This document shows, piece after piece, positions 6,090 to 30,582 of a DNA stretch of 64,000 bases (position 1 is its first letter; every line of letters begins with the position of its first letter). This DNA is from Candidatus Shapirobacteria bacterium (lineage in GTDB: Bacteria > Patescibacteriota > Microgenomatia > UBA12405), in contig JBAYIT010000002.1 in assembly GCA_041665485.1 (NCBI GenBank), positions 197,867-261,866 on the forward strand. The letters are read 5' to 3'. The notes beneath the pieces are model-generated. The model was not told the origin of the DNA, did no database searches, and worked only from the letters and a program-made list of their open reading frames with translations. Both the position numbers and the translations under genes were made by a program.

Positions 6090-8117
6090 TTACTCGTATC
6101 TTAAGGCGTTAAGAGCAGAGATTTTGGTGGCCCGTCTGGCCGGATAAATACCGGTAATAATCCCGACCAAAAGTGAGAGAAAGATGATTACAAAAACAAA
6201 CGATAGTGGTAAATATGAGATATCGACAAACCCAATCCCTTTAAAGATCGAAAAAATGGAAATAACGATTCCGGCAAACTTGCCCAAGATAAATCCTAAA
6301 ATAATTCCCAAAATCCCTCCGAAAAATCCCATAATCATGGATTCTGTTAAAAATAATTCCTGTACCTCAGAAGATTTCATTCCCATTGCTTTCATTAACC
6401 CTACTTCTCGAGTTCGCTCCAGAAGCGATACGGTGAGGGTGTTAAACATGCCCAAAGCGGCTACTGACAAAGCTACCATACCCAGAAGCATCAAAAGAGT
6501 TCTGGCTGTCGCAAAAAGCGAGTTAATTTGTTCTACCGTATCGGCAACCGATCTGGTTACGTACCCCATAGCTTCAACTTGTTTTCTGACTTTGGGAAGG
6601 TCTGTCTGGTTATTAACCACTACTTTTACTTGTGAGTAGTTCGTAATTCCCAAAGTGCGAAGGTCAATAAAAGGCACGTAAAAAACCGGTGTTTTTTCCT
6701 CTGGCGTCACTCCAATGATGGTATATTCTGCTGGAGCCGATTCAATTTTTTGGGTGGGATCAGTCAGAAGATCGCCAACAACAACAAACGAAGCCGTAAA
6801 CTTTTTCCCGACTGCTTCACTTTCTTTTATCCCAAGAACCGATAACATGGCACGGTTGACCACCGCTTGCTTTCTTGCTTCAGCAGCTAATTCAATTGTT
6901 TTTGTTTCCGGGGTTGCAATAACGCCGGCTTCAGAGGCAATTTCTACCCAACCAACCATATCGTCAACTTTTTTACCTGAAGCAGTTGAGTTATTAGTCG
7001 TTACACCTAAAACCTGTGGTTCAGTCACATTTACACCAGAGATTTTTATATTTATCTCGGCAAAAAAGCCGGTCTTTTGCACCTGCTTATTATCCTCATC
7101 CCGTAAAACAACATATTTTCCCTCCTCACAATCTCCTTGTGTTTCTGAATCACATTTTTCCTCTTTCCAAAGAAGCACTGGCGCTTTGATCCATTTCCCC
7201 AATGATGATCCTTCTTCTGTATTGCCGAATTCACCTGCGCCGTAGTCTGATAAATAACTGTCACCCCAAACTTCTTCGCCCGCAGACGTTCCTTCAACAC
7301 GCTTGGTATACCCTAAAACCTTAGCGGTAGTTGATGGGTTTTCCCGCACCCTAATCCAGGAAGAAGCATCTACAGCATAGTCTAATTTCTGTATTGACTC
7401 ACCTTGTTTACCAATCCGGTTTTCCGTTGTTGCACCGGCCACCTGCCCGGTCTTTTCCAATAATTCTGCCGTCAGCTCATTGCTGTCAAAGATTTTTCCC
7501 TCAACTGGCTTGATGGCTGATTGTTGGAGGTAGTCGGTCGTCACTCCGTAAACTGCCATATCGGACTGCGAATTTTGATAGTTGACTCGGCCAACAACGG
7601 CAATCAAGGGTAGTGCCATGTTAATCGCCGATATATCTTTAAAGTTGGAAAGAGTTTTGTCGTCAATTTTTATTTTTCCTCCCGATTGAGTGGTTATATC
7701 GGCTTGTCTCATCTCCTCAAGTCGGGCCACCCGGGTAATCACCAGTTGTTGCAAACCATAACCAATGGATACCAAAAACACAATCGCTCCAATGCCAATC
7801 ATCATCCCGCCGATAGTAACTATAGTTCTCGTTTTTTTGGATTTCATATTTCGAACCGAAAGTTCAATCAGGTCAACTCTTGAAATCGTGTTGCTGCGAT
7901 GTTGGTCTAAAAGCTTTGTTGCTTTGACGTAAAATGATAGAAGTGGAGAGGTTAATCGTGCTTTTACGCCTTTGGGAAATAATTTCCAATTAGAAATCGT
8001 AATTATTCCATTTGCGGTCACATAAAGCATGATAAGCAAGGCAAACGTTACCGCATGCCACAAAGCACCGGTAAAGTTTAAAAAACTAAATTTAGATTTT
8101 GATTGGTAATTTTGCAT
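6090..8117 (-). CDS. MacB/FtsX-family ABC transporter permease with large extracytoplasmic domain (SH3b-like insert)
   Basis: N-terminal TM, roughly 400-aa periplasmic domain, C-terminal FtsX-type 3-TM bundle; paralog of 28705..30582. Confidence 0.75.
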   Translation of the reverse strand: MQNYQSKSKFSFLNFTGALWHAVTFALLIMLYVTANGIITISNWKLFPKGVKARLTSPLLSFYVKATKLLDQHRSNTISRVDLIELSVRNMKSKKTRTIVTIGGMMIGIGAIVFLVSIGYGLQQLVITRVARLEEMRQADITTQSGGKIKIDDKTLSNFKDISAINMALPLIAVVGRVNYQNSQSDMAVYGVTTDYLQQSAIKPVEGKIFDSNELTAELLEKTGQVAGATTENRIGKQGESIQKLDYAVDASSWIRVRENPSTTAKVLGYTKRVEGTSAGEEVWGDSYLSDYGAGEFGNTEEGSSLGKWIKAPVLLWKEEKCDSETQGDCEEGKYVVLRDEDNKQVQKTGFFAEINIKISGVNVTEPQVLGVTTNNSTASGKKVDDMVGWVEIASEAGVIATPETKTIELAAEARKQAVVNRAMLSVLGIKESEAVGKKFTASFVVVGDLLTDPTQKIESAPAEYTIIGVTPEEKTPVFYVPFIDLRTLGITNYSQVKVVVNNQTDLPKVRKQVEAMGYVTRSVADTVEQINSLFATARTLLMLLGMVALSVAALGMFNTLTVSLLERTREVGLMKAMGMKSSEVQELFLTESMIMGFFGGILGIILGFILGKFAGIVISIFSIFKGIGFVDISYLPLSFVFVIIFLSLLVGIITGIYPARRATKISALNALRYE

Positions 8118-8125
8118 TGTTATTT

Positions 8126-8886: not shown

Positions 8887-11800
8887 TTATTTATTAGTTC
8901 CTCCCATAAATCCAAAGGCTTGCTGCAGGTTAGTAATCACCAGATTTAAAGCGTTATCGGTGGCCTTAGGTGTAATCGTTACCGTGTCAATTGAGTTGCC
9001 GACATTACCCACTTTGTCTTTGGAAGTTGACCGCACATGATAAACTTTTGCTGGCGTTAAGTTTGAAATTATTACCAAGTGGTTTATGGTCAAGTTAGTA
9101 TCTTCTTGCGTTTTTTGTGAGTAGGTTGTGCCGGTACCTTCGCCAAACTCTACTTGAGAAGTTGCCGGTTCATCCGTATTCCAGGATACGATTAGTTGGG
9201 CGGTTGATTCCTGGGCGGTTGAAGCGGTGGGTGGGATAGTTGCACCTTCAACATGAAGCTCTAAAACCTGCGGCGGTCTGGTATCGGTTGCTGTTGTCAG
9301 CCGCTGCGAATCAGAAGCAGCTTCGTTGCCGATTTTATCGCGCCCTCTTACCACCATAATATAATTTGTTTGGGGCAAAAGTCCGCGGATAATCATTCGG
9401 TGGTCACCTTTCGTTAAAGCGACATTAACTTCATCGCGGGCGTCAGCGGAATTACCCTCAGGATAGTAGGTGACAATTGAAGAGACTTCGGTGTTGGTAA
9501 TCCACGTCACTAAAAGAGTTGATTGAGCGGTGTTGGCTACTTGCTGAATCCTGACATTGCTAATTTTTGGCCTTGGTAGGGTAGTAAAGTCCAAGATTGT
9601 GCCTTCGTATTCGCTTGATTCGCTGTCAAAGGTATTGATTTTATAGTAATACTTTGTCCCATCCAAAAGTCCTGTGAGTTCGGCTGTGTAAGTGGTCTCA
9701 GTAGTTGAGGTTGAAATTTCTTTAGCTCCGCCAAAACTGGTGGTGGTGCCATAGTATATTTTGATTTTTGAGGCGTTGTTGGAAGTGAACTGGATAATAG
9801 CGGTAGTTAAACCAATGTTTTTAGCGCTGACGTCTTTAACGGTTGGCGCCGAAGAGGTAGAAAAGCTTTTTTCTTCACTGGCTCCAGTATTACCGTCTTC
9901 ATCTGTCCATTTGGTTTTATAGTAATAGGTTGTTCCCGGATTTAAGCCGGTCAACTGGATTGAATGCGAAGAAACCTGAGAGGAGTTGCTGGGCTCAACC
10001 GTATTATAACTACCGCTGGTTGTGCCGTACTGCACTTTGGAATCCGAGCTTCTGGAAGTTGTCCAGGTAATTGTGGCTTTTTTTGTGGTAATTGATCCGA
10101 CGTCTGGTCCGGTTGAGAGACTAGGGGCTGATGTCCATTTACCTGTAGGAGTGATTGAAACTGCATTAGATCCCGATGATTGGGCGTTAGCGCCGTCTTT
10201 GGCGTAAATCTTGTAGTAGTATTTGGCCGATGTAGGAGTGTTATCTACATAAGAAAGGCCCGAAGTTGTTCCGGTTTGAGCAAAAGTTGTGCCGTCAGTT
10301 GAGCGATAAACAAGATAGGTCAGATTTCCCGCACCTTTATAAGTTGGCGCCGTCCAAGTCAGGGTCACATTCCATTGGGATTGAGATTTAATCGAAGAAT
10401 CGGAAGCCACCAGATTCCCGGGATTGTCAGGATCAGTCGAGTCAAGAGTAAATGACGCCGAAATATAGTTTGAAGGCGAATAATTGGGAGTTGACGCATT
10501 ATCAATTGCCACAACATTGACGGTATTTGTGCCTTTGTTCACACCGGGCAAGGCTGCGGCCGAAACCGTTCGTGATGTTCCGTTGTCAATATAGGTAGTG
10601 GCGTTTCCTTGTAAAGTCGCCAAGGTTGAAGGCGGCGAAGTGTTGATCATATAATAATAATGGGCCACAGTTTTACCATTGGTCGGTGTTGCCTCTGGCC
10701 AGGATAAAGCATATGAATTAGAAGTTGAAGTTGATGGGGTTACGGTTACAGTCGCTAACCCGTCAAACGCCGGAGCTGCCCCGCCGTAATTGAGATTACA
10801 GGTTCGGATTGTCGCATCAGTTGAAATATTACCGGCAATATCGACTGTCCGGAAATAAATGATGTTATTGCCAGAATCAATTCCGTGCGGCAAACTATCA
10901 GACTTACCGTCCTGGGCCTGGGTTAATGTCCGCGAAGTGGCACTTGTGGGAACGTAATTATTGATACCAACCAGTGCTTCCGTGGTTGTCCCCAGCCATG
11001 TACCAGTTGTAGTATTAATCTGGTATTGCCAACCTAATATTCCCGATCCAACCACTTCGGTAACCGTATCAGAGGATGCCACGCTGTCAGTTGTCGGCCA
11101 GGAAAAGTTCATATCAGCAACATTGGAAAAACTACCCGAAGCGCAGGAAATATAGGCAGTATTTAAAGGCCGAGTATCGTCATACCTGAATTTAAAAGTA
11201 GCCGAGTTTCCGGCAAAAATATTACCTGATTTATCCACTACCTTGACAGCAAAAAGATAAGACTTAGGTGAGGTTGACAGAGGCGTTGTAAAATGACTTG
11301 CTAAATCAATACTGGTTCCGGTCACAATAAATTGGCAGGTCGTGCCGTCTGTTGGCACCGGACTGGTACTTAAAAGTCCCTTGGCTGTTGCCGGATCATT
11401 ATCTGGGATATCATCTCCGTTATTATCAAGGCTTAATGACAAACAATAGCCTTTAACTCCACTTTCGTTAGGATTATCGGCTCCGGCTGTCCAGGAAAAG
11501 TAAGGAGATGGGTTATTCGTCCAACCGTTTGAAGCCACCGTCGTTCCGCCGTTTGACCGAGACATTAAAATTGTAGAGGCATTACTTCCCCCGTTTGCAA
11601 CGTTTGGCGGGTTGGTGTCGGTGGTAAAACCAACTGATATATGAGGCAGTTTTGGTACATCAGCGCTTTCCGAGTTAAAAATAGCCTTAACTGAAATTTT
11701 ATGCGAAGTGGCAATAAGTGACGCATGTTGCATAATCGGGTTTTGTGCGTCCATTAGTTGTGCTGCCGTATTACCATCCGTTGCTCCGGCTACCACCCAA

Positions 11801-13767
11801 GAACTGCCGTTCCAATATTTCCAAGTGTTGCCGGACTCACAAGCTGTTCCCTGCCCGACACTTTTATTATCACTTCCAGCCGCGCCCAAATCATCGGTAC
11901 ATAATTGGTATTTGATGGTGGAGTTGCCAGTATGAGTGGCATCAGCCGTACAAACTGAACCAACCAGAGTTCCTTCACACAAATTGTCCCAGGTATTAAC
12001 CAGACCATTAAAATAACCGTCTTTATTGAAAACACTGTAGGTGCCTTGTTTTATCAAAGTCAGCTCATCAACTTTAACGGATTTGCCTCTTTTGACCAAA
12101 ACTCCGGCATCAACTGCGCTGTTAACACCGGTAACCGTGCCGGTTAATTTGTACCAGTTGCCGGTAACCGAAGTGTATGTGGGGCTGGTGATGGTGTTGC
12201 CGCCGTAATAAAGAGTAGCCACGGTGTCATCAACCACTCCACCAACCGGATCGGAACTCAAGTTATAGACATATGCTGAAATGGTGTAAGGAGCAGTATC
12301 GCCAACATTAACTGATTGATAGAGTTTGCCATCGACAATAGAGCCTATAGTAATTGTATTTCCACCGGCGCCGGGAAACCCGGAACTAGATGAGAAAGAT
12401 TGAGAGATTGCTACGGGACCACTGGCGCAGCGGAAACCAAGACTGTAGGCCGTACCCGTGGGCGCATAGATCAGATGCAAGGCGAACACACCCGCGCCCG
12501 TGGTATCGTTCCAAGCGCTGCCGCGTAAGAACGCGAAATTAGTGCCGTTTGTTCGAGCCCCCATATAATATTTACCCATGCCTTGAGCAGAGCCCCATGC
12601 AGTATTAGATGGCCTTAAAAGATCATAAGCTAAAGTACCGTAGTTACCGGCGCTGTTAAAGTACGGCCAATCAACATAAGCAGCAGTCTGAGCACTATCA
12701 GGTTTATTTTGTCCTAAAATTGAATCATTTGTCCACTCCCAGACGTTACCGGCCATATCCCAAATAATTTGTCCATTTGATAGAGTAAAAGTTCTTTTTT
12801 GTTTGCCTGAAGTATTATCGCAAACTGTTGCCCCTGTGGTTGTTTTATAACAGGCATAGGTGTCGTTGGTACTGGCATCAAGCGCCAGCCCCGTATCACC
12901 GTTTATGGCTTCGCTTACATTATCATTGTGGCCAGAGGCTAGCATGCCGGTTCCCGGCGTATTGCCGCATGGATAAACGCCATAACCGCCAACCGCAGTG
13001 CACCAGTTAGCGCTTTGACCTTCCGCATTGCGGGCAACTGTCATCCATTCGTTATTCGTAATCAGATGAGGGGCAGTAACTCCGACTCCCAATGACATAT
13101 TCGAACAGTAGCTTTCCGCATCGTTGGCGGTGCTGTCGTTTTGAGGAATATAGGCGATAGGAAAACCTTGGGCAGTTGAAACAACATGTTTTGCCCCAGT
13201 ACTATTACTACAGCTACATCCAGCTCCATTATTTCGGTACGTTCCGTATTGATCTCCCGTGCCATCTGCACCTGCCGAGCCATTACAGACATTACCTGAA
13301 GCGACCGTATTTCCCACATTGTCGCCGTCAGTGTCGCATTTGGCTTCATATTTCATTGCCAAAAAATTACCAGTAGGAGGATTATAGGTTGCGTTGGCGG
13401 GTACTTCTACCCAGCCGGAAGGGGGAACCGCGGCCACACTCCAAGAATCAGCATTATCTGTAAAGGCCGGATTAGCGAATTTATTAGCGCCAACTGTTCC
13501 GCCCGTTGGCTGTGCACCAGTATCATTAACCGTGGTTAAACTGGTCGTGTAGTCTGAAGCGGTCGCGCTTGAGAATGTCCATTCTTTTTTGCTGTCATTT
13601 AGGGCAAATACATTGGGAAATAGTTCTGATAAAGCCAGATAGGAACCGCCAAAAAGTCCGATTGTAATAAACAATATAGCCAACAGGTTAAACTGAAACC
13701 TGGAAAAATGAAATCGCGGCTCAAAGAAATACTTTTTAATGTTATGAATTAGGTTCATGTTGGTCAA
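8887..13767 (-). CDS. Giant (1626 aa) membrane-anchored surface protein: N-terminal signal-anchor, FGE-sulfatase/C-type-lectin-fold domain carrying the DGR variable region, long FN3/Ig-like repeat stalk; DGR target protein
   Basis: FGE/CLec motifs (NVWEWT, RGSAWN, GFRCAS); VR at codons about 411-450; C-terminal roughly 500 aa highly similar to the 23526..28031 protein. Confidence 0.8.
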   Translation of the reverse strand: MTNMNLIHNIKKYFFEPRFHFSRFQFNLLAILFITIGLFGGSYLALSELFPNVFALNDSKKEWTFSSATASDYTTSLTTVNDTGAQPTGGTVGANKFANPAFTDNADSWSVAAVPPSGWVEVPANATYNPPTGNFLAMKYEAKCDTDGDNVGNTVASGNVCNGSAGADGTGDQYGTYRNNGAGCSCSNSTGAKHVVSTAQGFPIAYIPQNDSTANDAESYCSNMSLGVGVTAPHLITNNEWMTVARNAEGQSANWCTAVGGYGVYPCGNTPGTGMLASGHNDNVSEAINGDTGLALDASTNDTYACYKTTTGATVCDNTSGKQKRTFTLSNGQIIWDMAGNVWEWTNDSILGQNKPDSAQTAAYVDWPYFNSAGNYGTLAYDLLRPSNTAWGSAQGMGKYYMGARTNGTNFAFLRGSAWNDTTGAGVFALHLIYAPTGTAYSLGFRCASGPVAISQSFSSSSGFPGAGGNTITIGSIVDGKLYQSVNVGDTAPYTISAYVYNLSSDPVGGVVDDTVATLYYGGNTITSPTYTSVTGNWYKLTGTVTGVNSAVDAGVLVKRGKSVKVDELTLIKQGTYSVFNKDGYFNGLVNTWDNLCEGTLVGSVCTADATHTGNSTIKYQLCTDDLGAAGSDNKSVGQGTACESGNTWKYWNGSSWVVAGATDGNTAAQLMDAQNPIMQHASLIATSHKISVKAIFNSESADVPKLPHISVGFTTDTNPPNVANGGSNASTILMSRSNGGTTVASNGWTNNPSPYFSWTAGADNPNESGVKGYCLSLSLDNNGDDIPDNDPATAKGLLSTSPVPTDGTTCQFIVTGTSIDLASHFTTPLSTSPKSYLFAVKVVDKSGNIFAGNSATFKFRYDDTRPLNTAYISCASGSFSNVADMNFSWPTTDSVASSDTVTEVVGSGILGWQYQINTTTGTWLGTTTEALVGINNYVPTSATSRTLTQAQDGKSDSLPHGIDSGNNIIYFRTVDIAGNISTDATIRTCNLNYGGAAPAFDGLATVTVTPSTSTSNSYALSWPEATPTNGKTVAHYYYMINTSPPSTLATLQGNATTYIDNGTSRTVSAAALPGVNKGTNTVNVVAIDNASTPNYSPSNYISASFTLDSTDPDNPGNLVASDSSIKSQSQWNVTLTWTAPTYKGAGNLTYLVYRSTDGTTFAQTGTTSGLSYVDNTPTSAKYYYKIYAKDGANAQSSGSNAVSITPTGKWTSAPSLSTGPDVGSITTKKATITWTTSRSSDSKVQYGTTSGSYNTVEPSNSSQVSSHSIQLTGLNPGTTYYYKTKWTDEDGNTGASEEKSFSTSSAPTVKDVSAKNIGLTTAIIQFTSNNASKIKIYYGTTTSFGGAKEISTSTTETTYTAELTGLLDGTKYYYKINTFDSESSEYEGTILDFTTLPRPKISNVRIQQVANTAQSTLLVTWITNTEVSSIVTYYPEGNSADARDEVNVALTKGDHRMIIRGLLPQTNYIMVVRGRDKIGNEAASDSQRLTTATDTRPPQVLELHVEGATIPPTASTAQESTAQLIVSWNTDEPATSQVEFGEGTGTTYSQKTQEDTNLTINHLVIISNLTPAKVYHVRSTSKDKVGNVGNSIDTVTITPKATDNALNLVITNLQQAFGFMGGTNK
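12364..12385 (-). promoter_or_regulatory. GC-rich hairpin (ggcgccgggaaacccgg) about 35 nt 3' of VR on the coding strand; candidate DGR target-recognition hairpin
   Basis: Stem ccggg/cccgg with aaa loop in otherwise AT-rich DNA; absent next to TR. Confidence 0.4.
12420..12535 (-). repeat. DGR variable repeat (VR), 116 bp, inside the giant surface protein gene
   Basis: 99 of 116 identity to TR at 15381..15496; all 17 mismatches are where TR has A on the coding (minus) strand; encodes ...APTGTAYSLGFRCAS. Confidence 0.85.
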
Positions 13768-14009
13768 TTCAGTTACATATAAATGTAACTGCTATCAGTA
13801 TGGCAAATTATCAATGTATATTCAATAGCATTTGAGATATCTACTCATCCCGACTTCTCCCTTTTTTGAGGTTGATAAATAATGTCTAAAAGACTAAAAA
13901 GACATTTGCAAATTTTTTCTGGCTTGCCATTTCTTTTTAACCCCCATATCTTCCCCTCGTGTTACAGATTCAGCATAACAAATAGCTGATCAAAACTAAA
14001 GGTGTGTTT

Positions 14010-15167
14010 TTAAGAAATAAATAAAAACCAGAGTATTATTGAGAACAACTTAAGTTGTTCATTAATTTTGGTTTTAATTTTCTCTTTTGATTTAATAATA
14101 GTTTTTTCAGTAGTGATATTTCTTTCAAATAGGTTTTTTTCTAACCCATAAGCATTGGCACGTTTTAGGTGCCCCCGAATCGAGCTGTAAGTTGCCTCAA
14201 GTTTATGCTCCTCGCCGTTCTTTAAGTTTTCATTTCTTCTCAACTTCAGCTTTTGTCTCATTCTTAAAAGTGTCTTCCCTCTAACAAGGACATGATCATA
14301 GAAAATAAGGTAGCCGACAAACGGTATCCCGCTTTTGACATTTTGGATTATGACTTTTTTAGGATGAAGACTAAGATGTAAATGACATTCCAAGAATGAT
14401 TTAAAATCCTCTTTAGTCTGTTTCAAATATTCTTTGTCAGAGTCAATAACCAAAAAGTCATCCATGTAGCGGGCATACCATCTGATATGTAAGGTTTCTT
14501 TGGCAAAATGATCAAGCTCGTTAAGATAAATATTGGCAAACAGTTGACTGGTTAAATTACCAATCGGTACACCCCGGCGCAGATCCGGATTAACCACATC
14601 TTCCGGTGCTTCAATCGGGCGGCCCTTGATATTAAAACATTTATGTTTAGTGATAATTTTTTCAATGAGCCTCTTTGTCTTATCACAAGGCACGGTTTTA
14701 TTGACAAGTGTCAGTAAGACATCCCAGGAAATGCTGGCAAAATATTTTTGAATATCCATCCTCAAACAATAAATTTGCGCGTCCTTTCCGTAAATTGACC
14801 TGGCCGCCTGTAAAAACTTTTTAATTCTGGATAAGCCGAAATGGGTGCCTTTATTCTTTCGGCAAGCGAAAGAATCGTAAATAAATTTTGATTCAAAAAG
14901 GGGCTCGATCCGAGAAACTAAAGAATGTTGGAGCACTCGGTCGCGAAATGCCGGTGCCGCCACCTTTCTTAGTTTAGGATCAGATACGGTAAAACAAACA
15001 TAGGATGAAGGTAAATAAGTCTCCAGTATTAATTCCCGTTGTAATTTAAACAAGTTGCTTTCCAGAAAAAAGCCATAATTGACGATATTACTTTTATACC
15101 GTTTGCATTTTCTGGCTGCCTGGTAGGCTGATAGCAGGTTGTTAAAATCATAGATTTCTTCATACAT
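14010..15167 (-). CDS. DGR reverse transcriptase
   Basis: RT motifs including PIGNLTSQLFANIYLNELD and YARYMDDFLV (YxDD); 385 aa with no maturase/endonuclease domain; TR and Avd-like gene immediately upstream. Confidence 0.85.
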   Translation of the reverse strand: MYEEIYDFNNLLSAYQAARKCKRYKSNIVNYGFFLESNLFKLQRELILETYLPSSYVCFTVSDPKLRKVAAPAFRDRVLQHSLVSRIEPLFESKFIYDSFACRKNKGTHFGLSRIKKFLQAARSIYGKDAQIYCLRMDIQKYFASISWDVLLTLVNKTVPCDKTKRLIEKIITKHKCFNIKGRPIEAPEDVVNPDLRRGVPIGNLTSQLFANIYLNELDHFAKETLHIRWYARYMDDFLVIDSDKEYLKQTKEDFKSFLECHLHLSLHPKKVIIQNVKSGIPFVGYLIFYDHVLVRGKTLLRMRQKLKLRRNENLKNGEEHKLEATYSSIRGHLKRANAYGLEKNLFERNITTEKTIIKSKEKIKTKINEQLKLFSIILWFLFIS

Positions 15168-15380
15168 ATTGATTCAACAAAAAGCGGGCCGGTTGTTAAG
15201 CCGGCCCACATACACTTAATCAGGTACCTATTTACCTTATCCCTGGTGTTTAATACAAGAATAAGAATACAGGCTTTATGTTCTCCCGCCATAAGCAGGA
15301 CAGAGAAAACCTGGTGATCGTTTGGACACCGAGTATATATCCTTGGACATATACCACTCCATCCTGGCGCATTATTTGGT

Positions 15381-15496
15381 CACTGGCGCAGCGGAAACCA
15401 ATATTGTTGTTCGTATTCGTGGGCGCATTGTTCAGATTCAAGGCGAACACACCCGCGTCTGTGGTATTGTTCCAATTGCTGCCGCGTTAGAACGCG
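15381..15496 (-). repeat. DGR template repeat (TR), 116 bp
   Basis: Homologous to VR at 12420..12535; Asn (AAY)-rich when read in the VR frame (NAPTNTNNNIGFRCAS); lies between the Avd-like gene and the RT. Confidence 0.85.
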
Positions 15497-15561
15497 TTAC
15501 GGTTTTCCCTAAGTATTTAGAATAACAGAATTTAACTTTTTATGCAGGGTTATCTGGCAGC

Positions 15562-15903
15562 TTAGTTTAGGTTTGTCCAACCGTAGAGGATTTTTCCTAT
15601 CTCATTTATTTTTTCAGCAGCATGTTTGTATTGGATAATACTCATGAAGTGAAGATCTTTTGTTAAACGGATAAGAATTCTTAGTTCATCCAGTTGATCG
15701 GACATTTGAAGTTGAATAACCTTTCTGGTGTTGTCCCTAATTTTATTAGCTTGAACCGAAGAAAGTAAAATCTTTAATCCCAACTCTTCCAAATGTTTCC
15801 CCAAAACCAGCCGATGACTTTTAGGAATCCTATTTATCAATGGATACAGCCAAAGGAGAAAGTCGTAAATTTTCTGGAAAATGATAAGTTTTTCGGCACC
15901 CAT
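15562..15903 (-). CDS. avd: Avd-like DGR accessory protein (four-helix-bundle family)
   Basis: 113 aa; KIYDFLLWLYPLINRIPKSHRLVLGKHLEE pattern resembles Avd/PF05635-type proteins; position immediately 5' of TR-RT. Confidence 0.5.
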   Translation of the reverse strand: MGAEKLIIFQKIYDFLLWLYPLINRIPKSHRLVLGKHLEELGLKILLSSVQANKIRDNTRKVIQLQMSDQLDELRILIRLTKDLHFMSIIQYKHAAEKINEIGKILYGWTNLN

Positions 15904-17616: not shown

Positions 17617-17620
17617 AACT

Positions 17621-17660: not shown

Positions 17661-17664
17661 AGTC

Positions 17665-23230: not shown

Positions 23231-23293
23231 ACCTCCATGGATTGCTCCACACGCACCTCAAGCGTGCTTGTCTACCAATTTCAACATCCCGGC
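23209..23293 (-). tRNA. tRNA-Leu (anticodon GAG), long variable arm, CCA encoded
   Basis: Acceptor gccggga/tcccggc, anticodon stem cacgc/gcgtg with loop ttGAGgt, T-arm ggttcaagtcc. Confidence 0.75.
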
Positions 23294-23388
23294 TCTAGTC
23301 GCTATTATACCTAATGATTTATCAATTTTATACTTCTTCGTAATCTGACAACACGTTTACGACAACTGCAAACTGTAAACCGATCTAG

Positions 23389-23461
23389 TGGCTGTTGAGG
23401 GACTCGAACCCCCGACCGCCCCGATGTAAACGGGATGCTCTACCAACTGAGCTAAACAGCC
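23389..23461 (-). tRNA. tRNA-Val (anticodon TAC)
   Basis: Acceptor ggctgtt/aacagcc, D-arm gctcagttggtagagc, anticodon loop ttTACat, T-arm gggttcgagtccc. Confidence 0.75.
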
Positions 23462-23525: not shown

Positions 23526-26500
23526 ATGCAATATCAACTATGTATAAAATACATATTAGATATACGTTATTATCTCCCCAAACATCGGACAAAAGACTTG
23601 CCTTTCTCTCGGATAACTGACACAATGATAATGGTCTTTATTCAGACCATTTTTGTCATGCCCATAACCCTTTTTCATCATTTTTTAACCAAAAAAATCA
23701 CCATTGCCAGATGGCAACTTAATTTCTTTGCCTTTATTTGTCTAACCACCGGTCTAATTACAGGATCCTATCTCGCCCTAAAAGGAATCACGGGCATTTT
23801 TGCCACTTCCAACTCTTCAATAACCAAAACTACCGATACTGATTTTAATCAGGGAACATTGTCCTCACTTTCAATTTCCGGTACCGGAAATTCTGCCACC
23901 GTTCTCCTTTCCGGAACAAGTGGATTTTATAACCGTAATTGGGGTTATCGAAAACAAATAATAATCGACCACACTAAAGTGTCAGCCGATTTAACGGACT
24001 TCCCTGTCCTCATCTCCATAACCAACGCCAGCCTCAAAAGCACCTCCAACGGCGGTCATGTCAGTCAAGACGATGGTGACGATATCTTATTTATCGCCTC
24101 CGACAATCTAACCAAACTAAGTCACGAAATTGAAAAATATGACAGCGCCACTGGGCAATTAACTACTTGGGTCAAAATACCCACTCTTTCAAGCTCTGTT
24201 GACACCACCATCTACCTCTACTACGGCAATGTCAGCACCGCTTCAATGCAAAACCCCACCGATGTTTGGAGTAACGGTTATGTTGGTATCTGGCATTTTT
24301 CTACCGGAGCCACCGGCCTTTCCGGAATAGATTCAACTTCCAATGAATACAACATGACTTTAAATGGAGTCACCGCCGGATCAGGCACCATCAACGGTGG
24401 AGCCAATTTTGACGGTAATCACTATTTATCAATTGGAACAAACATTTCTGCCCTGGACAACGCTAGTAATCTCACCATTGAACTTTGGACAAACTTAAAT
24501 GCCTATGGTTCTTATGGAACTGCTTTTTTTCAAAAACTGTCAATCAATAACTGGTCTAACGACATTTTATTTTTCGTCGGTAATGACTCATCTGTAAACC
24601 TTCAAATTGACAAAGGCGCCGACGGAGGGCCTTCTTATCTCGCCACCGACCTTCGCAACAGACAAGTTCACTTGGTAGGTACTTTTGATGGCACTCAAAC
24701 TGGAAACGCCAACCGAATGAAAATCTACGAAAACGGAGTCCAAAAAACACTCTCGTTTGGCTCCTGGTCGGCACCAACAACAACGGCTGATATGAACGGT
24801 TATAGTCAAAAAATCGGCCAATATACCAACGACGGTCCATATAACGCCTATGGTGTTTTTGATGAATTTCGTCTTTCTAGTGTTGCCCGCACCGCCGAAT
24901 GGGTAACCACAGAATACAACAACCAGCTTTCTCCAGCCACTTTTGTTTCTTTCGGTTCGGAAGAATCAGTTTTAGCCACTTCCGGCACTTGGGAATCGCC
25001 AACAAATTCAAATATTATCGATCTAATTTGGAATGGTGGTTGGGGTATCGGAACAAGTGAATCTACCGCCTTTTCGGCAACAATCTCCGGTGTTGGCGCC
25101 AGCAACACTATCGCCTTCGCCATCAAAACAGCCAATTCAGTCGCCAACCTCACTTCAGCCAATTACATTAATCTCGGCACGGCCAATTCCGGCACCACAT
25201 TTACCAAAACAAAGGCTGAATTAGATGCCCTAGGCGTTGCCACCGGCACGGCCAGATATGTTCAGGTCAAAGCCACTTTTGCCCAAACTTCCGACATCAC
25301 TCCTCAATTACATAGTTTTACTCTTTCCTATCTTTCCGACAACTCTGGCCCGGAAACTAACGCTACCAACATTGTCATGCTTCGCGATGTTGGCGGATCA
25401 GCTGTCGCTCAAAATGGTTGGACCAACAACTCCGCTCCTTACTTTTCCTGGACCGCCGGAGCCGACTCTCAATCCAATATTAAAGGATACTGTCTCTCTA
25501 TCACTGCCGGCAATACTAACCCCAATCTGGGAACCGTAATTAGTGACTTTCTCTCCGACAATACCCCATCCACTCTCGATAGCACTCATATTTCATCAGC
25601 CGGCACTCAATGTGGCAACGGCGCCGGATTTCTGGTCACCACCAACAACATTGATTTTGCTCAAACTAAATACCGGGGAACCGCCGTAAGTAAATCATGG
25701 TTAACTTCCTCAAATACCGCCTACTATCTATATATCAAAGCCATCGATAATACCGGAAATATCGCCCCCGATCCCAACACCTCATTCTATTTTCGTTTTG
25801 ACAACACTAATCCGACTAACCCCACTTATTTCTCCATGCCCAGCGACTGGGTTTCTACCCGATCCGTCTCACTTTTATGGGCCTCATCAGGCGACGATGG
25901 CCCGCAAGACAGCAATTCTGATATTGCCGGCCTCCAATATCGAATCGGCACCACTGGTCTCTGGTATGGTGATTCTCATTCCGGAACACAAGACAACACT
26001 GACCTATTAGCCAACGACGGCAATTACAGCATCCAACAGACTCCTGATTTTACTTCTCTGTCTGAAGGAACAAACAATATCTATTTACGCACCTGGGACA
26101 ACGCCGGAAACGCCTCCTCCTCCTATATTTCCGGAACTTTAAAAATCAACACCATCTCTCCCTCTGCCCCCAGAAATTTAAATGTCGAACCAACCGACAA
26201 CACCAGTAATTCCTACTCTTTTACTTGGGACACTCCTTCTACCTTTACCGGCCAAGCCAGCAATCTTAGTTATTGTTACACCATCAATACTCTTCCCACT
26301 TCCACCACCTGTACATATACCGGAATTGGCACCACCTCACTTTCCGCTGATGCCTTTGCCACCCAGCCGGAAACAAACACTCTTTACCTTGTCGCCAAAG
26401 ACGAGGCAGGCAACATTAATTACAATGCCTATACCTCCATTGCTTTCACTTATTCCGGTACTGCCCCGGGGTTGCCACGAAACGTTGACGTCTCAGACAT

Positions 26501-28031
26501 CTCTATTAAGTCAACTTCCAACTGGAAGTTAGCTATTTCTTGGGATATTCCTTCCTCGGTTGGCGCCGGAGTTTCCTCATATAAAATTTATCGTTCAACC
26601 ACCAACACCACTTGTTCCGCCAGTCCTTCCTTGTTTACTTTAATTGGAACCAGTGCCGGAACCTCCTATTCAGACATTAGTCTCTCTCAAGTTACTTATT
26701 ATTACTGCATTAAAGCCTGTGACAGTGCCTCAAATTGTTCTGCCTATTCTTCAACTGTTTCCAAGATTCCAACCGGAAAATACTTCACCTCAGCCGGCCT
26801 CACTTCCGGTCCAGCAGCCGGATCAATTACCACCAAAAAAGCCACTATCACCTGGAGTACTGACCGTTCTTCGGATTCAAAAATTGCTTTCGGCACAGCC
26901 AGCAATTCTTATGGATCCGACGAAGTCTCAAACTCCTCCCAAGTCACTTCTCACACTGTCAATCTAACCAACCTTAAGGCAGGAACAACCTACTACTACA
27001 AAGCCAAGTGGACAGACGAAGATGGTAACACCGGCACCTCCGACGAGAAAACTTTTACCACCGAATCAGCTCCCACCGTCAAGGACGTTTTAGCAAAAAA
27101 TATTGGTCTATCCACTGCTACCATCCAATTTACTTCCAAAGGCGCCACCAAAATCAAAATTTATTACGGAACAAACACTAGTTTTGGAGGTGGCAAAGAA
27201 ATTTCTACTTCTACTACTGAAACTACCTATACTACCGAATTAGTTGGCCTCAACGATGGCACTAAATACTATTACAAAATTAATACTTTCGATAGCGAGT
27301 CGGGTGAGTATGAAGGAACTATTCTCGATTTCACCACCCTTCCTCGTCCCAAAATCAGTAATGTTCGAATCCAGCAAGTCGCCAATACCGCCCAATCTAC
27401 CATTCTGGTTACCTGGTCCACCAACACCGAAGTCTCTTCAATTATCACTTATTACCCTCAGAATCAACCAGATGGTGCCAAAGATGAAGTCAACATCGCT
27501 CTTATTAAAGGCGATCACCGTTTGATTATTCGCGGTCTTTTACCCGAAACCGACTATATTTTAGTAGTTAAAGGTCGTGACAAAATTGGCAATGAAGCCA
27601 CCAGCGATTTTCAAAGTCTAACCACCGCCACCGACACTCGTCCGCCACAAATTTCTGAACTTCGGGTTGAAAGTTCAAATATTCCTCCCGTAACTCAAAC
27701 CGCTCAAAACCAAACGGCCCAGCTCGTAGTTTCTTGGAACACCGACGAGCCGGCTACCACCCAAGTTGAATTCAGTGAAGGTACTGGCGTCACTTACAGC
27801 CAAAAAACCCAAGAAGACAGCAATCTAACCCTCAATCATATCGTCATTATTTCCAATCTCTCTCCCTCAAAGGTTTATCACCTCCGTGCCATTTCCCGCG
27901 ACAAAGCCGAGAACTTAAGTAGCTCGATTGATGTTGTCACCATCACTCCTAAGGCCACTGAAAACGCCCTTAATCTCGTTATCACCAACCTTGAACAAGC
28001 CTTCAGCTTTTTGGGGGGGTTAAAAGACTAA
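23526..28031 (+). CDS. Giant (about 1500 aa) membrane-anchored surface protein paralog with N-terminal LamG/ConA-like domain and FN3-like repeats; no DGR variable region
   Basis: TM segment with GSYLAL motif as in the 8887..13767 protein; LamG-like region; C-terminal roughly 500 aa near-identical in pattern to the paralog; true start possibly downstream of 23526. Confidence 0.75.
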   Translation: MQYQLCIKYILDIRYYLPKHRTKDLPFSRITDTMIMVFIQTIFVMPITLFHHFLTKKITIARWQLNFFAFICLTTGLITGSYLALKGITGIFATSNSSITKTTDTDFNQGTLSSLSISGTGNSATVLLSGTSGFYNRNWGYRKQIIIDHTKVSADLTDFPVLISITNASLKSTSNGGHVSQDDGDDILFIASDNLTKLSHEIEKYDSATGQLTTWVKIPTLSSSVDTTIYLYYGNVSTASMQNPTDVWSNGYVGIWHFSTGATGLSGIDSTSNEYNMTLNGVTAGSGTINGGANFDGNHYLSIGTNISALDNASNLTIELWTNLNAYGSYGTAFFQKLSINNWSNDILFFVGNDSSVNLQIDKGADGGPSYLATDLRNRQVHLVGTFDGTQTGNANRMKIYENGVQKTLSFGSWSAPTTTADMNGYSQKIGQYTNDGPYNAYGVFDEFRLSSVARTAEWVTTEYNNQLSPATFVSFGSEESVLATSGTWESPTNSNIIDLIWNGGWGIGTSESTAFSATISGVGASNTIAFAIKTANSVANLTSANYINLGTANSGTTFTKTKAELDALGVATGTARYVQVKATFAQTSDITPQLHSFTLSYLSDNSGPETNATNIVMLRDVGGSAVAQNGWTNNSAPYFSWTAGADSQSNIKGYCLSITAGNTNPNLGTVISDFLSDNTPSTLDSTHISSAGTQCGNGAGFLVTTNNIDFAQTKYRGTAVSKSWLTSSNTAYYLYIKAIDNTGNIAPDPNTSFYFRFDNTNPTNPTYFSMPSDWVSTRSVSLLWASSGDDGPQDSNSDIAGLQYRIGTTGLWYGDSHSGTQDNTDLLANDGNYSIQQTPDFTSLSEGTNNIYLRTWDNAGNASSSYISGTLKINTISPSAPRNLNVEPTDNTSNSYSFTWDTPSTFTGQASNLSYCYTINTLPTSTTCTYTGIGTTSLSADAFATQPETNTLYLVAKDEAGNINYNAYTSIAFTYSGTAPGLPRNVDVSDISIKSTSNWKLAISWDIPSSVGAGVSSYKIYRSTTNTTCSASPSLFTLIGTSAGTSYSDISLSQVTYYYCIKACDSASNCSAYSSTVSKIPTGKYFTSAGLTSGPAAGSITTKKATITWSTDRSSDSKIAFGTASNSYGSDEVSNSSQVTSHTVNLTNLKAGTTYYYKAKWTDEDGNTGTSDEKTFTTESAPTVKDVLAKNIGLSTATIQFTSKGATKIKIYYGTNTSFGGGKEISTSTTETTYTTELVGLNDGTKYYYKINTFDSESGEYEGTILDFTTLPRPKISNVRIQQVANTAQSTILVTWSTNTEVSSIITYYPQNQPDGAKDEVNIALIKGDHRLIIRGLLPETDYILVVKGRDKIGNEATSDFQSLTTATDTRPPQISELRVESSNIPPVTQTAQNQTAQLVVSWNTDEPATTQVEFSEGTGVTYSQKTQEDSNLTLNHIVIISNLSPSKVYHLRAISRDKAENLSSSIDVVTITPKATENALNLVITNLEQAFSFLGGLKD

Positions 28032-28034: not shown

Positions 28035-28742
28035 ATGAACAAAACTGTCATTCAGATCCAAAACCTTTCCAAATCCTTTCCTGTCGGCAATCAAAAGGTG
28101 CCGGTTCTTAAAAATCTTAACTTCGGGATTGAAAGTGGTGACTTCTGTATTATCGTCGGTCCTTCTGGTTGTGGTAAATCAACTCTGCTTCACACTATTC
28201 TTGGGCTGGAAAAGCCCACCTGGGGCACCTGTCACCTTTTATCACAAGACCTTTATCACGACATGGATGAAGACCAAATAAGTGAGTTTCGTAAAAACCA
28301 TATCGGCATGATTTATCAACAGCCAAATTGGATAAAGTCACTCACTGTTCTGGAAAATGTTGCTTTTCCCTTGGTTTTAATGGGCAAACCCCACTCCGAA
28401 AATTTGATCAACGCCAATAACTTACTTACCGCCATCAAAATGGATCCCTGGGCCTCCTACCTTCCCACTCAACTCTCAAGCGGTCAGCAACAAAAGGTTT
28501 CTTTAGTTCGCGCATTAATTAGCAACCCCGAAATAATCATTGCCGATGAGCCCACCGGTAATCTGGATTTTGAATCAGGTCAGGAACTAATGCAACTTCT
28601 GGTCGATCTTAACCATCAAAAAGGCAAAACTATTCTTATGGTTACTCACGATCTTGAATACCTTAAATTCGCCAAAACGATACTAAAAATGTTCGACGGC
28701 AACATTGTCAGTAAATATAAACAAAAGCAACATGATCGATAG
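28035..28742 (+). CDS. ABC transporter ATP-binding protein (paralog of 8126..8884)
   Basis: GPSGCGKST, LSSGQQQKVSLVRAL, IIADEPTGNLD, VTHD. Confidence 0.9.
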   Translation: MNKTVIQIQNLSKSFPVGNQKVPVLKNLNFGIESGDFCIIVGPSGCGKSTLLHTILGLEKPTWGTCHLLSQDLYHDMDEDQISEFRKNHIGMIYQQPNWIKSLTVLENVAFPLVLMGKPHSENLINANNLLTAIKMDPWASYLPTQLSSGQQQKVSLVRALISNPEIIIADEPTGNLDFESGQELMQLLVDLNHQKGKTILMVTHDLEYLKFAKTILKMFDGNIVSKYKQKQHDR

Positions 28743-30582
28743 AACACGTAAAATTATCAGTTTTATTCTTCTTCTTACTGTTTATTTATTTACCAAACTA
28801 GGAAAATATATTTTTCCCAAACTAAGGCTTAATCAACGATTAATCTCCATTTTAGACATCCACAGCTCCAATTCCATTTCCGGTATCGAGATTATTGATC
28901 TTGCTCTACGAAACATGAAATCAAAGAAAACAAGAACTTTAATAACTATCGGTGGAATGACTCTAGGCATTGGCGCTATTGTTTTTCTTGTTTCTATTGG
29001 TTATGGTTTCGAAAAACTTGTCATCACCAGAGTTGCCAGGCTCGAAGAAATGCGTCAGGCAGACATCACCACCCAACTCGGAGGCAAAGTGAAAATTGAC
29101 GACAAAACCCTTTCCGATCTCAAAGGAATTCAAACCGTCGAGTCCGTTTTTCCTTTAATTGCTGTTGTCGGTCGTGTCAGTTACCAGAAATCGGTCACCG
29201 ACACTGCCGTCTACGGTGTCACTAGTGAGTATCTCAATCAATCAGCCATCAAACCCGTTAGTGGTCAAATTTTTAATAGTAACGATCTCTCTCTTGATGT
29301 TTATCAGCCAATTGGAAAAGTTGCCGGAATTACCAGCGAAACAGAAGTTGGAACCATCGGTGAAAAAATTCAAGATGTTGACTTCACTATTAATCCGGAA
29401 AGTTGGATTAAAGTTCGGGCCAATCCAAACACAAATTCTCAAATTTTAGGTTACACCAAAAGAGTTGAAGGCCAATCAAGCGGGCAGGAAGTATGGGGAG
29501 GGGAATACCAAATCGATAACAACCAAAAGCTTGAAAAATGGATTAAAGCCCCCGTTCTTCTCTGGAAGAAAGAGGGAGCTCAATATTTAGTTATCAACGG
29601 CCAAGACAACAGCCAAATTCAAGAAACTGGCTATTTTGCCGAAATCAATTTACAAATCTCTGGCGCCAGTCTAAAAGAACCTGATGTTTTAGGGGTTGTC
29701 AGTAACCAAAGCAATCTCGATTGGGTAGAGATAGCTTCAGAATCAGCCACTCTGTCTCCTCCGGCCACAAAAATTGTCGATCTCTCTTCTCAAGCCAAAC
29801 GGCAAGCCGTTGTCAACCGGGCCATGCTCTCTGTCTTGGGAATTAAAGAAAGCGAGGCCCTTACTAAAAGGTTTAACGCCTCCTTTATTGTTGTCAGCGA
29901 TCTCCTTAACGACCCCACCACCAACATCGAGTCAAGTCAGGCAGAATATTCCATTGTTGGTGTCACTCCCGACGAAAAAACACCTGTCTTTTATGTTCCG
30001 TTCATTGACCTTAGAACCCTCGGTATCACCAACTTTTCTCAAGTTAAAGTCGTCGTTAAAAATCAAAACGAACTTTCCAAAACCAGGCGCCAAATCGAAT
30101 CAATGGGCTACATCACCCGTTCTGTTGCTGACACTGTTGCCCAAATCAATTCACTGTTCGCCACCGCCCGAACTATTCTCATGGTTTTAGGTATGGTTGC
30201 CCTGGGAGTTGCTGCCTTGGGAATGTTCAACACCCTAACTATTTCTCTTTTAGAAAGAACCCGTGAAGTTGGATTAATGAAAGCAATGGGCATGAAATCT
30301 TCTGAAGTTCAGGAGTTGTTTTTAGCAGAGTCAGTAATTATGGGTTTTCTCGGAGGTGTTTTTGGTATTCTTCTCGGCTGGATTTTAGGAAAATTTATTG
30401 GTCTTTCTCTCTCTTTCTTTTCTTTTTTTAAGGGAGTTGGAGTTATCGATGTTGCCCACATTCCCACTCCTTTTATTATCACTATTGTTTTCCTTTCTCT
30501 CTTAGTTGGTCTATTAACCGGCATTTATCCCGCCAAAAGATCAACCAGAATTTCCGCCCTCAACGCCCTAAGATACGAATAA
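28705..30582 (+). CDS. MacB/FtsX-family ABC permease (paralog of 6090..8117)
   Basis: Same architecture and long stretches of identity with the 6090..8117 product. Confidence 0.75.
   Translation: MSVNINKSNMIDRTRKIISFILLLTVYLFTKLGKYIFPKLRLNQRLISILDIHSSNSISGIEIIDLALRNMKSKKTRTLITIGGMTLGIGAIVFLVSIGYGFEKLVITRVARLEEMRQADITTQLGGKVKIDDKTLSDLKGIQTVESVFPLIAVVGRVSYQKSVTDTAVYGVTSEYLNQSAIKPVSGQIFNSNDLSLDVYQPIGKVAGITSETEVGTIGEKIQDVDFTINPESWIKVRANPNTNSQILGYTKRVEGQSSGQEVWGGEYQIDNNQKLEKWIKAPVLLWKKEGAQYLVINGQDNSQIQETGYFAEINLQISGASLKEPDVLGVVSNQSNLDWVEIASESATLSPPATKIVDLSSQAKRQAVVNRAMLSVLGIKESEALTKRFNASFIVVSDLLNDPTTNIESSQAEYSIVGVTPDEKTPVFYVPFIDLRTLGITNFSQVKVVVKNQNELSKTRRQIESMGYITRSVADTVAQINSLFATARTILMVLGMVALGVAALGMFNTLTISLLERTREVGLMKAMGMKSSEVQELFLAESVIMGFLGGVFGILLGWILGKFIGLSLSFFSFFKGVGVIDVAHIPTPFIITIVFLSLLVGLLTGIYPAKRSTRISALNALRYE

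Follow-up and report, generated by a model that had tools for sequence, protein, structure and literature searches.

A 64,000-nt stretch of DNA from Candidatus Shapirobacteria (assembly GCA_041665485.1, contig JBAYIT010000002.1, positions 197,867 to 261,866), referred to here as the window, encodes two three-gene units in mirror orientation, each comprising a giant surface protein (G1 or G2), an ATP-binding cassette (ABC) ATPase and a permease. The head of one giant holds the variable region of a diversity-generating retroelement (DGR), and its unit lies among genes of a conjugative type IV secretion system (T4SS) in what resembles an integrative conjugative element (ICE). The genes of the two triplets and the principal parts of their products, among them a C-type-lectin-fold (CLec) head and transmembrane (TM) helices, are as follows.

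8887..13767, minus strand: giant surface protein 1 (G1), 1626 aa from a TTG start (1623 aa in the public call), laid out as signal peptide/anchor, CLec head, CBM-like middle and FN3-rich scaffold
13603..13767, minus strand: extended signal peptide/anchor of G1, PRFHFSRFQFNL...GSYLAL...VFA/LND (slash, likely cleavage site), hydrophobic segment at aa 21-49
12403..13470, minus strand: FGE-sulfatase/C-type-lectin-fold head of G1, about aa 100-455
8899..11709, minus strand: G1 scaffold held in common with G2, aa 687-1623
8890-10299, minus strand: four tandem FN3 domains and C-terminal helix of G1, last 470 aa
8126..8884, minus strand: ABC ATPase 1, 252 aa, a LolD/FtsE/MacB-like nucleotide-binding domain (PF00005, 121 bits)
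6090..8117, minus strand: permease 1, 675 aa, with TM1, an extracytoplasmic MacB_PCD domain of ~420 aa and three TM helices (FtsX domain)
23631..28031, plus strand: giant surface protein 2 (G2), 1466 aa in the public call (reading frame opens at 23526, 1501 aa), laid out as the same signal-peptide motif as G1, DUF2341 + ConA/LamG head and FN3-rich scaffold
23808..25205, plus strand: DUF2341 + ConA/LamG-like jelly-roll head of G2
25209..28016, plus strand: G2 scaffold
28035..28742, plus strand: ABC ATPase 2, 235 aa (PF00005, 109 bits)
28705..30582, plus strand: permease 2, 625 aa, four TM helices, MacB_PCD + FtsX, start codon uncertain

A first-pass annotation of this DNA had described the two units as homologous triplets in mirror orientation, and this holds: the six open reading frames (ORFs), both peptides that it quoted and the GSYLAL motif are found in the translations, and BLASTP aligns the two ATPases at 60% identity over 231 aa, the permeases at 62% over 653 aa and the giants at 52% over 977 aa (G1 687-1623 vs G2 575-1498, E=0). 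Protein alignment shows the likeness of the giants to be colinear domain homology and not a matter of low-complexity repeats. Their C-termini are homologous as proposed, over an extent of ~940 aa, however, rather than only ~500 aa, within which identity reaches 71% over the final 470 aa and ~35% over the adjoining 460 aa. Within each triplet the genes are separated by 0-8 nt or overlap. Domain searches with Pfam and NCBIfam profiles, judged against curated cut-offs, found FGE-sulfatase and FN3/Pur_ac_phosph_N in G1, DUF2341 and FN3 in G2, ABC_tran in both ATPases and MacB_PCD with FtsX in both permeases; a PDB sequence search with both giants returned zero matches. DNA identity between the copies is only 68-70%, and a DNA comparison of both units revealed neither a long near-identical tract nor recent gene conversion. 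Two ORFs antisense to permease 1 (6184-6639 and 6715-7245, plus strand) match antisense ORFs in other loci; these matches are not evidence of genes, because the permease gene itself is conserved.

The heads that the two giants carry on this conserved scaffold differ, as first proposed, with an FGE/CLec domain in G1 and a DUF2341/LamG domain in G2. The G1 head matches PF03781 at 24-27 bits, just over the cut-off of 23.3, and its homologues carry precomputed PF03781 assignments; its lectin fold is assigned from sequence, namely from this profile match and from a variable region ending LGFRCAS. The G2 head matches PF10102 (DUF2341) at 42-46 bits, and Pfam Laminin_G_3 has no match in G2 itself, only in G2 homologues. 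An AlphaFold (AF2) model of G2 residues 95-560 (pLDDT 73.9) was compared with solved structures by Foldseek, which returned ConA/LamG-type jelly rolls, including BoNT/TeNT Hc-N, the trans-sialidase lectin domain and AbnA domain 4 (TMt 0.71), with probability 1.00 and E ~1e-8. At the N-terminus, the 'TM region' with GSYLAL that the annotation had described as common to both giants is present, and belongs to a family-wide motif that is probably an extended signal peptide/anchor with a likely cleavage site rather than a simple TM segment: PRFHFSRFQFNL, a hydrophobic core with G.Y(L/F)(A/T)L, then P.(I/V)FA, then (L/A)ND. This motif is common to ~40 giants across the CLec, LamG and propeller head classes, with beta-helix-headed giants having ordinary signal peptides instead. 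If it is cleaved as a signal peptide, the head would form the free N-terminal end and the giant would be kept at the cell by its C-terminus.

The two triplets have many relatives. A scan of one genome per species, with an alignment of the giants' C-terminal 470 aa as query, recovered 372 relatives, and the best 80, ranked by similarity to G1, were kept; loci fetched from other genomes or assemblies for comparison with the window are denoted by L-numbers (L001, L042 and so on). All 80 are Patescibacteria-like, from Microgenomates lineages, Moranbacteria, Saccharibacteria, WS6 and WWE3, although some of the metagenome-assembled genomes (MAGs) concerned bear evidently wrong taxon labels. Homologues of both ATPase and permease occur at 74 of the 80 kept loci (tblastn), the gene order is giant, ATPase, permease wherever coordinates were inspected, and a giant and an ATPase gene lie upstream at each of three loci reached from the permease instead (3/3). 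Permease clusters number >900. ATPase-permease fusions of ~930-970 aa, as in MacB proper, were also seen (P0284, P0294, P0308, P0311). The giants range from 1,400 to 3,200 aa, and at least six classes of head can be told apart among the complete ones: CLec; DUF2341/LamG; LamG into which a beta-propeller is inserted; glycine-rich beta-helix; Kelch-like propellers; and BNR-like repeats. One locus (L073 6329-20984) has three giant genes in a row (1689, 1712 and 1472 aa), whose heads differ, upstream of just one ABC ATPase gene; the fetched sequence ends inside that gene, so the permease was not seen. This layout, one ABC pair for three giants, is counted in favour of handling of the giant by the pair. 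As part of the explanation favoured below, which we hold to be probable as a whole, the triplet would belong to a large, Patescibacteria-specific family of three-gene surface-display cassettes, in each of which the giant is Sec-exported.

Upstream of G1, on the same strand, lies a complete DGR, with accessory protein, template repeat (TR), reverse transcriptase (RT) and a variable region (VR) in the lectin-fold head:

12420..12535, minus strand: VR, G1 aa 411-450, ending LGFRCAS
14010..15167, minus strand: DGR RT (PF00078, 62.5 bits; motifs IGNLTSQ and YMDD)
15381..15496, minus strand: TR, between avd and RT
15562..15903, minus strand: DGR accessory protein Avd (bAvd; PF22296 77.6 bits, cut-off 40; NF033474 88.2, cut-off 80)

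TR and VR form a 116-nt pair with 86% identity in which all 16 mismatches (16/16) fall at TR adenines, and 15 of these affect the first or second position of a codon; the TR holds 31 adenines, and both repeats share an identical GC-rich 21-nt end, TTGGTTTCCGCTGCGCCAGTG. The 100 nt downstream of the VR fold no better than shuffled sequences (z=-0.61), giving no sign of a hairpin 3' of the VR. The TR has no other match in the 64-kb window, so that DGR control is limited to copy 1, as the annotation had it, with a single VR inside G1. A stand-alone FGE-sulfatase/lectin-fold protein (246 aa, 60528-61268), which follows an LpxC-like deacetylase gene (both within 59668-61268, minus strand), was considered as a second DGR target and rejected, the window's TR having no match there. 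The association of retroelement and head recurs in the G1-ranked sample: adenine-biased TR/VR pairs of ~120 nt were found in 19 of 21 other CLec loci, and among the 51 loci with at least 4 kb of upstream sequence, which define all co-occurrence counts, 19 have CLec and DGR, two CLec alone, two a DGR alone and 28 neither (Fisher p=8e-10). Loci L004 and L011, two independent assemblies of a phage-like sister element, share 19.5 kb at 99.9% identity, and a gap-free base-by-base comparison over ~14.7 kb revealed 17 differing sites, all inside the VR (L004 7327-7445 vs L011 7872-7990) and 16 of them at TR adenines. Since the two differ almost only inside the VR, this DGR lineage is active, and the sister element diversifies in nature.

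Triplet 1 and the DGR sit between a coupling protein/relaxase side and a VirB2/B6/B4/M23 side. With conjugation genes on both sides, they lie inside the conjugation gene set, the remaining features of which are:

147..5958, minus strand: T4SS mating-channel genes, comprising the next five
147-917, minus strand: M23 peptidase
914-3049, minus strand: VirB4 ATPase of Gram-positive/ICE type (P-loop_TraG; CD1110 229 bits, below the cut-off of 325)
3046-3858, minus strand: 270-aa ORF
3836-5599, minus strand: VirB6/TrbL-like protein
5629-5958, minus strand: VirB2/TrbC pilin
16023-16853, minus strand: membrane protein, 276 aa
17107-17616, plus strand: DUF2958 protein
17665-18426, minus strand: Replic_Relax protein (33 bits; weak relaxase assignment)
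18579-21248, minus strand: VirD4-like coupling protein (T4CP; TrwB_AAD_bind, TraG-D_C)
21698-23230, plus strand: large serine recombinase, its last 22 nt overlapping tRNA-Leu(gag)
23209-23293, minus strand: tRNA-Leu(gag)
23388-23461: tRNA-Val

The annotation had placed a DGR/ICE-like segment between the two copies; such a segment is present, but the conserved ICE-like backbone also takes in triplet 1 and the T4SS genes on its left. The serine recombinase and tRNA-Leu are the presumed right end of the element, and copy 2 starts 340 bp outside it. GC content is 35-38% in the T4SS cluster, and the window's housekeeping region has 40-44%. Past the left edge of the window, the T4SS genes are succeeded by a candidate defence gene, then by genes for a PLD-like nuclease and a GIY-YIG protein, and further on by exosortase and VIT genes; in L090, which covers this side (10725-17166), the order is a DUF2326 protein (PADLOC candidate PDC-M68B), an MC6 protein, a 341-aa protein and a helix-turn-helix regulator, after which come the PLD-like nuclease, the GIY-YIG protein and the exosortase/VIT genes. 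The presumed far left end of the element would lie about 6-8 kb outside the window, close to the PLD/GIY-YIG genes of L090. To the right of copy 2, two genes (31572-34862, minus strand) match the IetS/IetA anti-phage pair in PADLOC (1e-58 and 3e-43), one for a 748-aa S8 subtilase and the other for a 346-aa AAA ATPase; three clustered tRNA genes lie on the far side of this pair. The membrane proteins that trail each unit (16023-16853 and 30826-31557) showed no homology to each other. The window has 14 tRNA genes in its 64 kb (23209-50708), in small clusters on both strands, and two of these tRNA genes separate the recombinase from the G2 gene. Its right half is housekeeping, with TGT, MiaB-like, Obg-like GTPase, ThrRS, PheRS, trigger factor, PBP1, RecG and RNase III.

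The same backbone recurs elsewhere, in the order T4CP, relaxase, DUF2958, Avd, RT, CLec-headed giant, ATPase, permease, VirB2, VirB6, ORF, VirB4, M23, wholly or partly in L001/L002 (Pacebacteria), L012, L015, L036, L045, L054 and L095, and the same gene set occurs within 10-kb flanks, the distance over which T4SS neighbours were counted, in L016, L035, L038 and L048. The DNA-processing genes (16023-21248) keep their order in L012, L015, L036, L045 and L054, and the mating-channel genes are colinear with those of L045, L054, L095 and others. T4SS genes are found at 12 of 21 DGR loci vs 1 of 30 others (p=2e-5). A near-identical Avd-RT-giant-ATPase-permease module also stands between portal-like and major capsid genes, with an endolysin nearby, in L004/L011 and L040; triplet 1 and its DGR have their nearest kin in these phage-like cassettes. 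The L040 portal and capsid proteins are 87% and 94% identical to those of the L004/L011 element, and the L040 MAG bears a different class label; the apparent phage-like carrier spans L004 58-20868. DUF2341/LamG triplets stand among housekeeping genes without mobile-element genes in L007-L009 (gltX, aspS, relA/spoT, recJ), as does a LamG-type triplet in L097 (ddl, trigger factor), and the flanks of copy 2 have no synteny in common with other LamG-type loci. L096 and L007 have the same housekeeping neighbourhood around the triplet (recJ, relA/spoT, aspS, PBP, gltX) and differ in giant length, head and the presence of RT, Avd and an Lcl_C protein. Small four-helix 23S_rRNA_IVP (Avd-like) proteins are encoded beside or inside triplets in L097 (3228-3614, 7939-8169) and L096 (7814-8224), and a 164-aa protein with zero Pfam matches lies at the triplet of L007 (5957-6451); RT is absent nearby in L097 and L007. 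These small proteins could be DGR remnants or an extra component.

Scaffold similarity cuts across head types, in both directions. G2 residues 527-1462 are 70.8% identical to residues 617-1553 of the CLec-headed giant of L042, a locus that also encodes homologues of RT and Avd and has a TR/VR pair biased to adenines, and show zero similarity upstream of the junction. Likewise, G1 residues 685-1623 are 66.6% identical to LamG-headed L020, above several CLec-headed giants. In both cross-head pairs the similarity sets in at the same junction, just upstream of a conserved NGWTNN.(S/A)PYFSWT stretch. A neighbour-joining tree of concatenated ATPase and permease sequences (72 taxa, 915 columns, 100 bootstraps) intermixes the types, with LamG-headed L049 nesting with the CLec/DGR/T4SS loci L054 and L036 (bootstrap 100) and LamG-headed L057 inside a CLec clade (100); descent of the CLec/DGR cassettes as one clade is accordingly rejected. 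Scaffolds alike across head types from a fixed junction, together with the intermixed tree, indicate that heads have been exchanged repeatedly at one junction across the family. The modular exchange of binding heads suggested in the first-pass annotation is thus real and general.

The route suggested for it, a local inverted duplication followed by a head swap, is not borne out by the phylogeny that the same annotation had called for. If one ancestral triplet had been duplicated in inverted orientation in the source genome, with one copy then gaining a different head, the mirror orientation, the same gene order and the 52-62% protein identity would be explained; yet G1 and G2 are never sisters in the ATPase+permease tree, where the G1 ABC genes group with L040/L004/L011 (bootstrap 98) and L001 (90) and those of G2 with L012/L015 (97), both ICE-borne CLec/DGR cassettes. 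The G1 ATPase+permease sequences are 73.5% identical to L004/L011 vs 62.5% to G2, those of G2 are 67% identical to L015, the G2 scaffold is 70.8% identical to L042 vs 52% to G1, the DNA of the copies lacks recent tracts at its 68-70% identity, and the backbone of copy 1 is colinear in many other genomes. We regard local duplication as highly improbable, and by their sequences the two copies are xenologues. A shufflon-like head swap by inversion in the source genome was also rejected, given the 68-70% DNA identity of the scaffolds and the same arrangement in four assemblies. Less easily dismissed, though still unlikely in our estimation, is that both triplets are cargo of one composite mobile island, copy 2 having come in horizontally too, whether on a second element or in an earlier round of integration at the same tRNA-cluster hotspot. 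The grouping of the G2 ABC genes with ICE-borne DGR cassettes (97) speaks for such an island, as do a G2 scaffold closest to the DGR targets L042 and L037 and the setting of copy 2, bounded by tRNA-Leu/Val on one side and on the other by a 243-aa membrane protein, the IetAS pair and three tRNAs, at low GC. DUF2341/LamG cassettes among housekeeping genes in L007 and L097 speak against it, the recombinase and tRNA-Leu part copy 2 from the T4SS element, and copy 2 has no accompanying conjugation or DGR genes.

The ABC pair has the hallmarks of a known superfamily. The ATPase motifs are GPSGCGKST, LSSGQQQ and IIADEPTGNLD, and its best NCBIfam matches are LolD, DevA, FtsE and MacB, all under the cut-offs. 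The permease has hydrophobic segments at 98-116, 540-558, 601-619 and 636-654, matches PF12704 and PF02687, and has YtrF, MacB and LolC/E/F as its closest solved counterparts in the PDB. Equivalog scores are well under the cut-offs (lolCE 73 vs 362, MacB 84 vs 966), and neither MacA/TolC, LolA/B nor hydrolase-activator partner genes were found in the locus. The sequences place the pair in the MacB/FtsX/LolCDE (type VII) superfamily, yet as no known equivalog; it probably does not serve as a solute transporter. The C-terminal 470 aa of the giant are modelled as four tandem FN3 domains and a terminal helix (pLDDT 82.5). Across the family, mean pairwise identity is 69% for the TM part of the permease, 62.5% for this C-terminus, 55% for the ATPase, 47% for the outer domain of the permease and 42.5% for the middle scaffold, and distances between giant C-termini track those of the permease outer domain best (rho 0.51 vs 0.35 for the ATPase).

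We posit that the head binds surface ligands, probably glycans, on another cell, which could be a conjugation partner or the bacterial host on which the source organism probably lives as an epibiont; the heads all belong to lectin, propeller or beta-helix types that typify glycan and surface binding. The DGR would rewrite up to 31 adenine-templated positions of the lectin binding face, and so retarget the mobile copy. By analogy with FtsEX, LolCDE and MacB, the ABC pair may act mechanically on the giant through ATP hydrolysis, the likeliest mode being that the giant is held and deployed through its C-terminal FN3 array and helix on the outer domain of the permease. That the module keeps a constant place within the T4SS gene order speaks for a tie to T4SS-mediated contact.

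As the best overall explanation, one we judge somewhat better than even, the triplets would be cassettes of one family, with copy 1 ICE-borne and retargeted by the DGR, copy 2 outside the element, and the ABC pair handling the giant mechanically. A bolder version, which we offer only tentatively, is that the DGR-giant-ABC module is a portable, self-reprogramming cell-targeting device of Patescibacteria ICE-like and phage-like elements, in which the hypervariable lectin tip would pick the partner cell for conjugation or attachment and the ABC pair would be a motor or anchor not recognised before, deploying the giant through its conserved FN3 C-terminus, with the other-headed chromosomal copies as its non-variable housekeeping version. 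The T4SS cluster might instead be a resident host-interaction system, not a mobile ICE, with the DGR-diversified giant as its dedicated host-cell adhesin. Chromosomal T4SS genes with pilins are essential in Saccharibacteria and are thought to act on the host (PMC10633639), the triplet and DGR hold a fixed position in the T4SS gene order of several lineages, and neither an excision product nor an att site was found here. The cluster differs from that of Saccharibacteria, however, in its VirD4-like coupling protein, Replic_Relax protein and terminal serine recombinase by a tRNA. Just outside the window's left edge the T4SS genes give way to candidate defence genes, the cluster has a GC content of 35-38% vs 40-44% for housekeeping genes, and the same DGR-triplet module occurs in a phage-like element, all of which lead us to give a resident system only a minor share of the probability. 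An ordinary MacB-like efflux or peptide-resistance pump that merely lies beside the giant gene would account for the name 'antimicrobial peptide transport system' in the source annotations and for the sequence likeness to MacB, DevA and bacteriocin exporters. We consider such a pump very unlikely in view of the linkage, which holds in 74/80 loci and 3/3 reverse look-ups with minimal gaps and is seen with six or more classes of head, whether the setting is chromosomal, ICE-like or phage-like; NCBIfam equivalog scores are also far below the cut-offs, a membrane-fusion partner is absent and the extracytoplasmic domain is ~2x that of MacB.

Several points weigh against the explanation of ICE-borne and outlying family cassettes with mechanical ABC handling. 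Handling of the giant by the ABC pair is drawn from linkage, conservation and analogy rather than from experiment or a model of the complex, and the apparent co-evolution of giant C-terminus and permease outer domain is a weak hint that is confounded by shared ancestry. Since the C-terminal region was used to retrieve the loci, its universality is partly by construction, and CLec types are over-represented in the 80-locus sample, these loci having been chosen by their likeness to G1. The tree is a neighbour-joining tree on 915 columns whose deep nodes have no support. Nine of the 21 DGR cassettes have no T4SS genes within 10 kb, and three are in a phage-like context, so that the cassette is not strictly a T4SS component. 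A comparison of the tRNA-Leu/recombinase end with the 9.8 kb left of the window yielded only chance 10-12-mers in place of att repeats, and neither an excised form nor an empty site of the element was seen. The VR is identical in both assemblies of the source genome that cover it (the window and L093), so that the window's own DGR is only presumably active; three other assemblies have the same arrangement as the window, and the window, L093, L006 and L091 differ by 0-3 bases, with zero in the VR. Copy 2 may also be island cargo, its ABC genes grouping with ICE-borne cassettes (97) and its flanks consisting of tRNAs and the IetAS pair.

The components of the locus have counterparts in several known systems. 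In the known type VII ABC systems, work is done on an extracytoplasmic partner, and not on the movement of a solute across the membrane. The pair described here is like FtsEX (with PcsB/EnvC/CwlO/RipC), LolCDE, MacAB-TolC and YtrEF in its four-TM MacB_PCD/FtsX permease and LolD/FtsE-like ATPase, and differs in its outer domain of ~420 aa and in its presumed partner, which resembles a giant adhesin where the known systems have a hydrolase, lipoprotein or toxin. Giant RTX adhesins (LapA/LapBCE, SiiE) are also large repetitive adhesins encoded beside a handling ABC transporter. Substrates of such type I secretion systems have no N-terminal signal peptide and a C-terminal RTX signal, and depend on an exporter ABC protein with fused TM domain, a membrane-fusion protein and an outer-membrane channel; among the triplet and window proteins we found neither RTX/haemolysin-type repeats nor membrane-fusion or outer-membrane protein genes, and the window ATPases are separate and MacB-type. 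In the R64 shufflon/PilV and Gram-positive PrgB systems, the surface adhesin of a conjugative element is varied or used to choose or hold the partner cell. The present system differs from these in using mutagenic retrohoming rather than site-specific inversion and in its unrelated protein families, and its role in mating would be an inferred one.

Among known DGRs, that of Legionella pneumophila lies in an integrative conjugative element and has LdtA as its target, as cited in PMC5758913. There, too, a DGR of a conjugative element (Avd, TR, RT) diversifies a surface protein of C-type-lectin fold; LdtA is a small lipoprotein with a C-terminal VR and without a linked transporter, whereas here the VR is at aa 411-450 of a 1,626-aa FN3-rich giant linked to a MacB-type ABC pair, and the DGR and its target stand mid T4SS gene order. 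The clade-2 DGRs of Patescibacteria (Candidate Phyla Radiation, CPR; Roux et al. 2021, Wu et al. 2018) agree with ours in phylum, in the Avd-TR-RT-target order and in a VR ending GFRC. Surveys report that recognisable domains, transmembrane ones included, are typically absent from CPR DGR targets, and that next to nothing is known of what these targets do or how they relate to mobile elements (PMC8144416, PMC5758913); the target family described here carries a signal peptide and a long FN3 scaffold, comes with its own ABC pair and is found in a T4SS or phage-like setting. Saccharibacteria have an essential T4SS without coupling protein and relaxase, and essential lectin/FN3 surface proteins, in a study that does not describe a giant-ATPase-permease cassette (PMC10633639). 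The literature searched on DGRs with Patescibacteria, T4SS, MacB/FtsX and ICE contained no description of the triplet family or of a DGR target with a MacB/FtsX transporter. The DGR itself is thus conventional, and the ingredients (DGR, lectin head, type VII ABC pair, T4SS ICE) are familiar; the conserved combination, the VR at aa 411-450 of a 1,626-aa target and the head-swapping scaffold appear undescribed.

Patescibacteria are a huge and mostly uncultured group, probably attached to other cells, for which partner recognition is an open question. For one family of CPR DGR targets, the locus now makes the architecture clear, with a secreted giant whose head is at the free end, an ABC pair as obligate genetic partner and the core of a conjugative T4SS element or a phage-like element as context, and with heads exchanged at a fixed junction on a scaffold whose C-terminus outdoes the ATPase in conservation. 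If the ABC pair handles the giant, the mechanotransmission paradigm of FtsEX, LolCDE and MacB would extend to adhesin display, and if the head selects conjugation partners, this would be the first DGR tied to mating specificity, a retroelement counterpart of the R64 shufflon. Saccharibacteria are genetically tractable and carry members of the family, so that both ideas are testable there.

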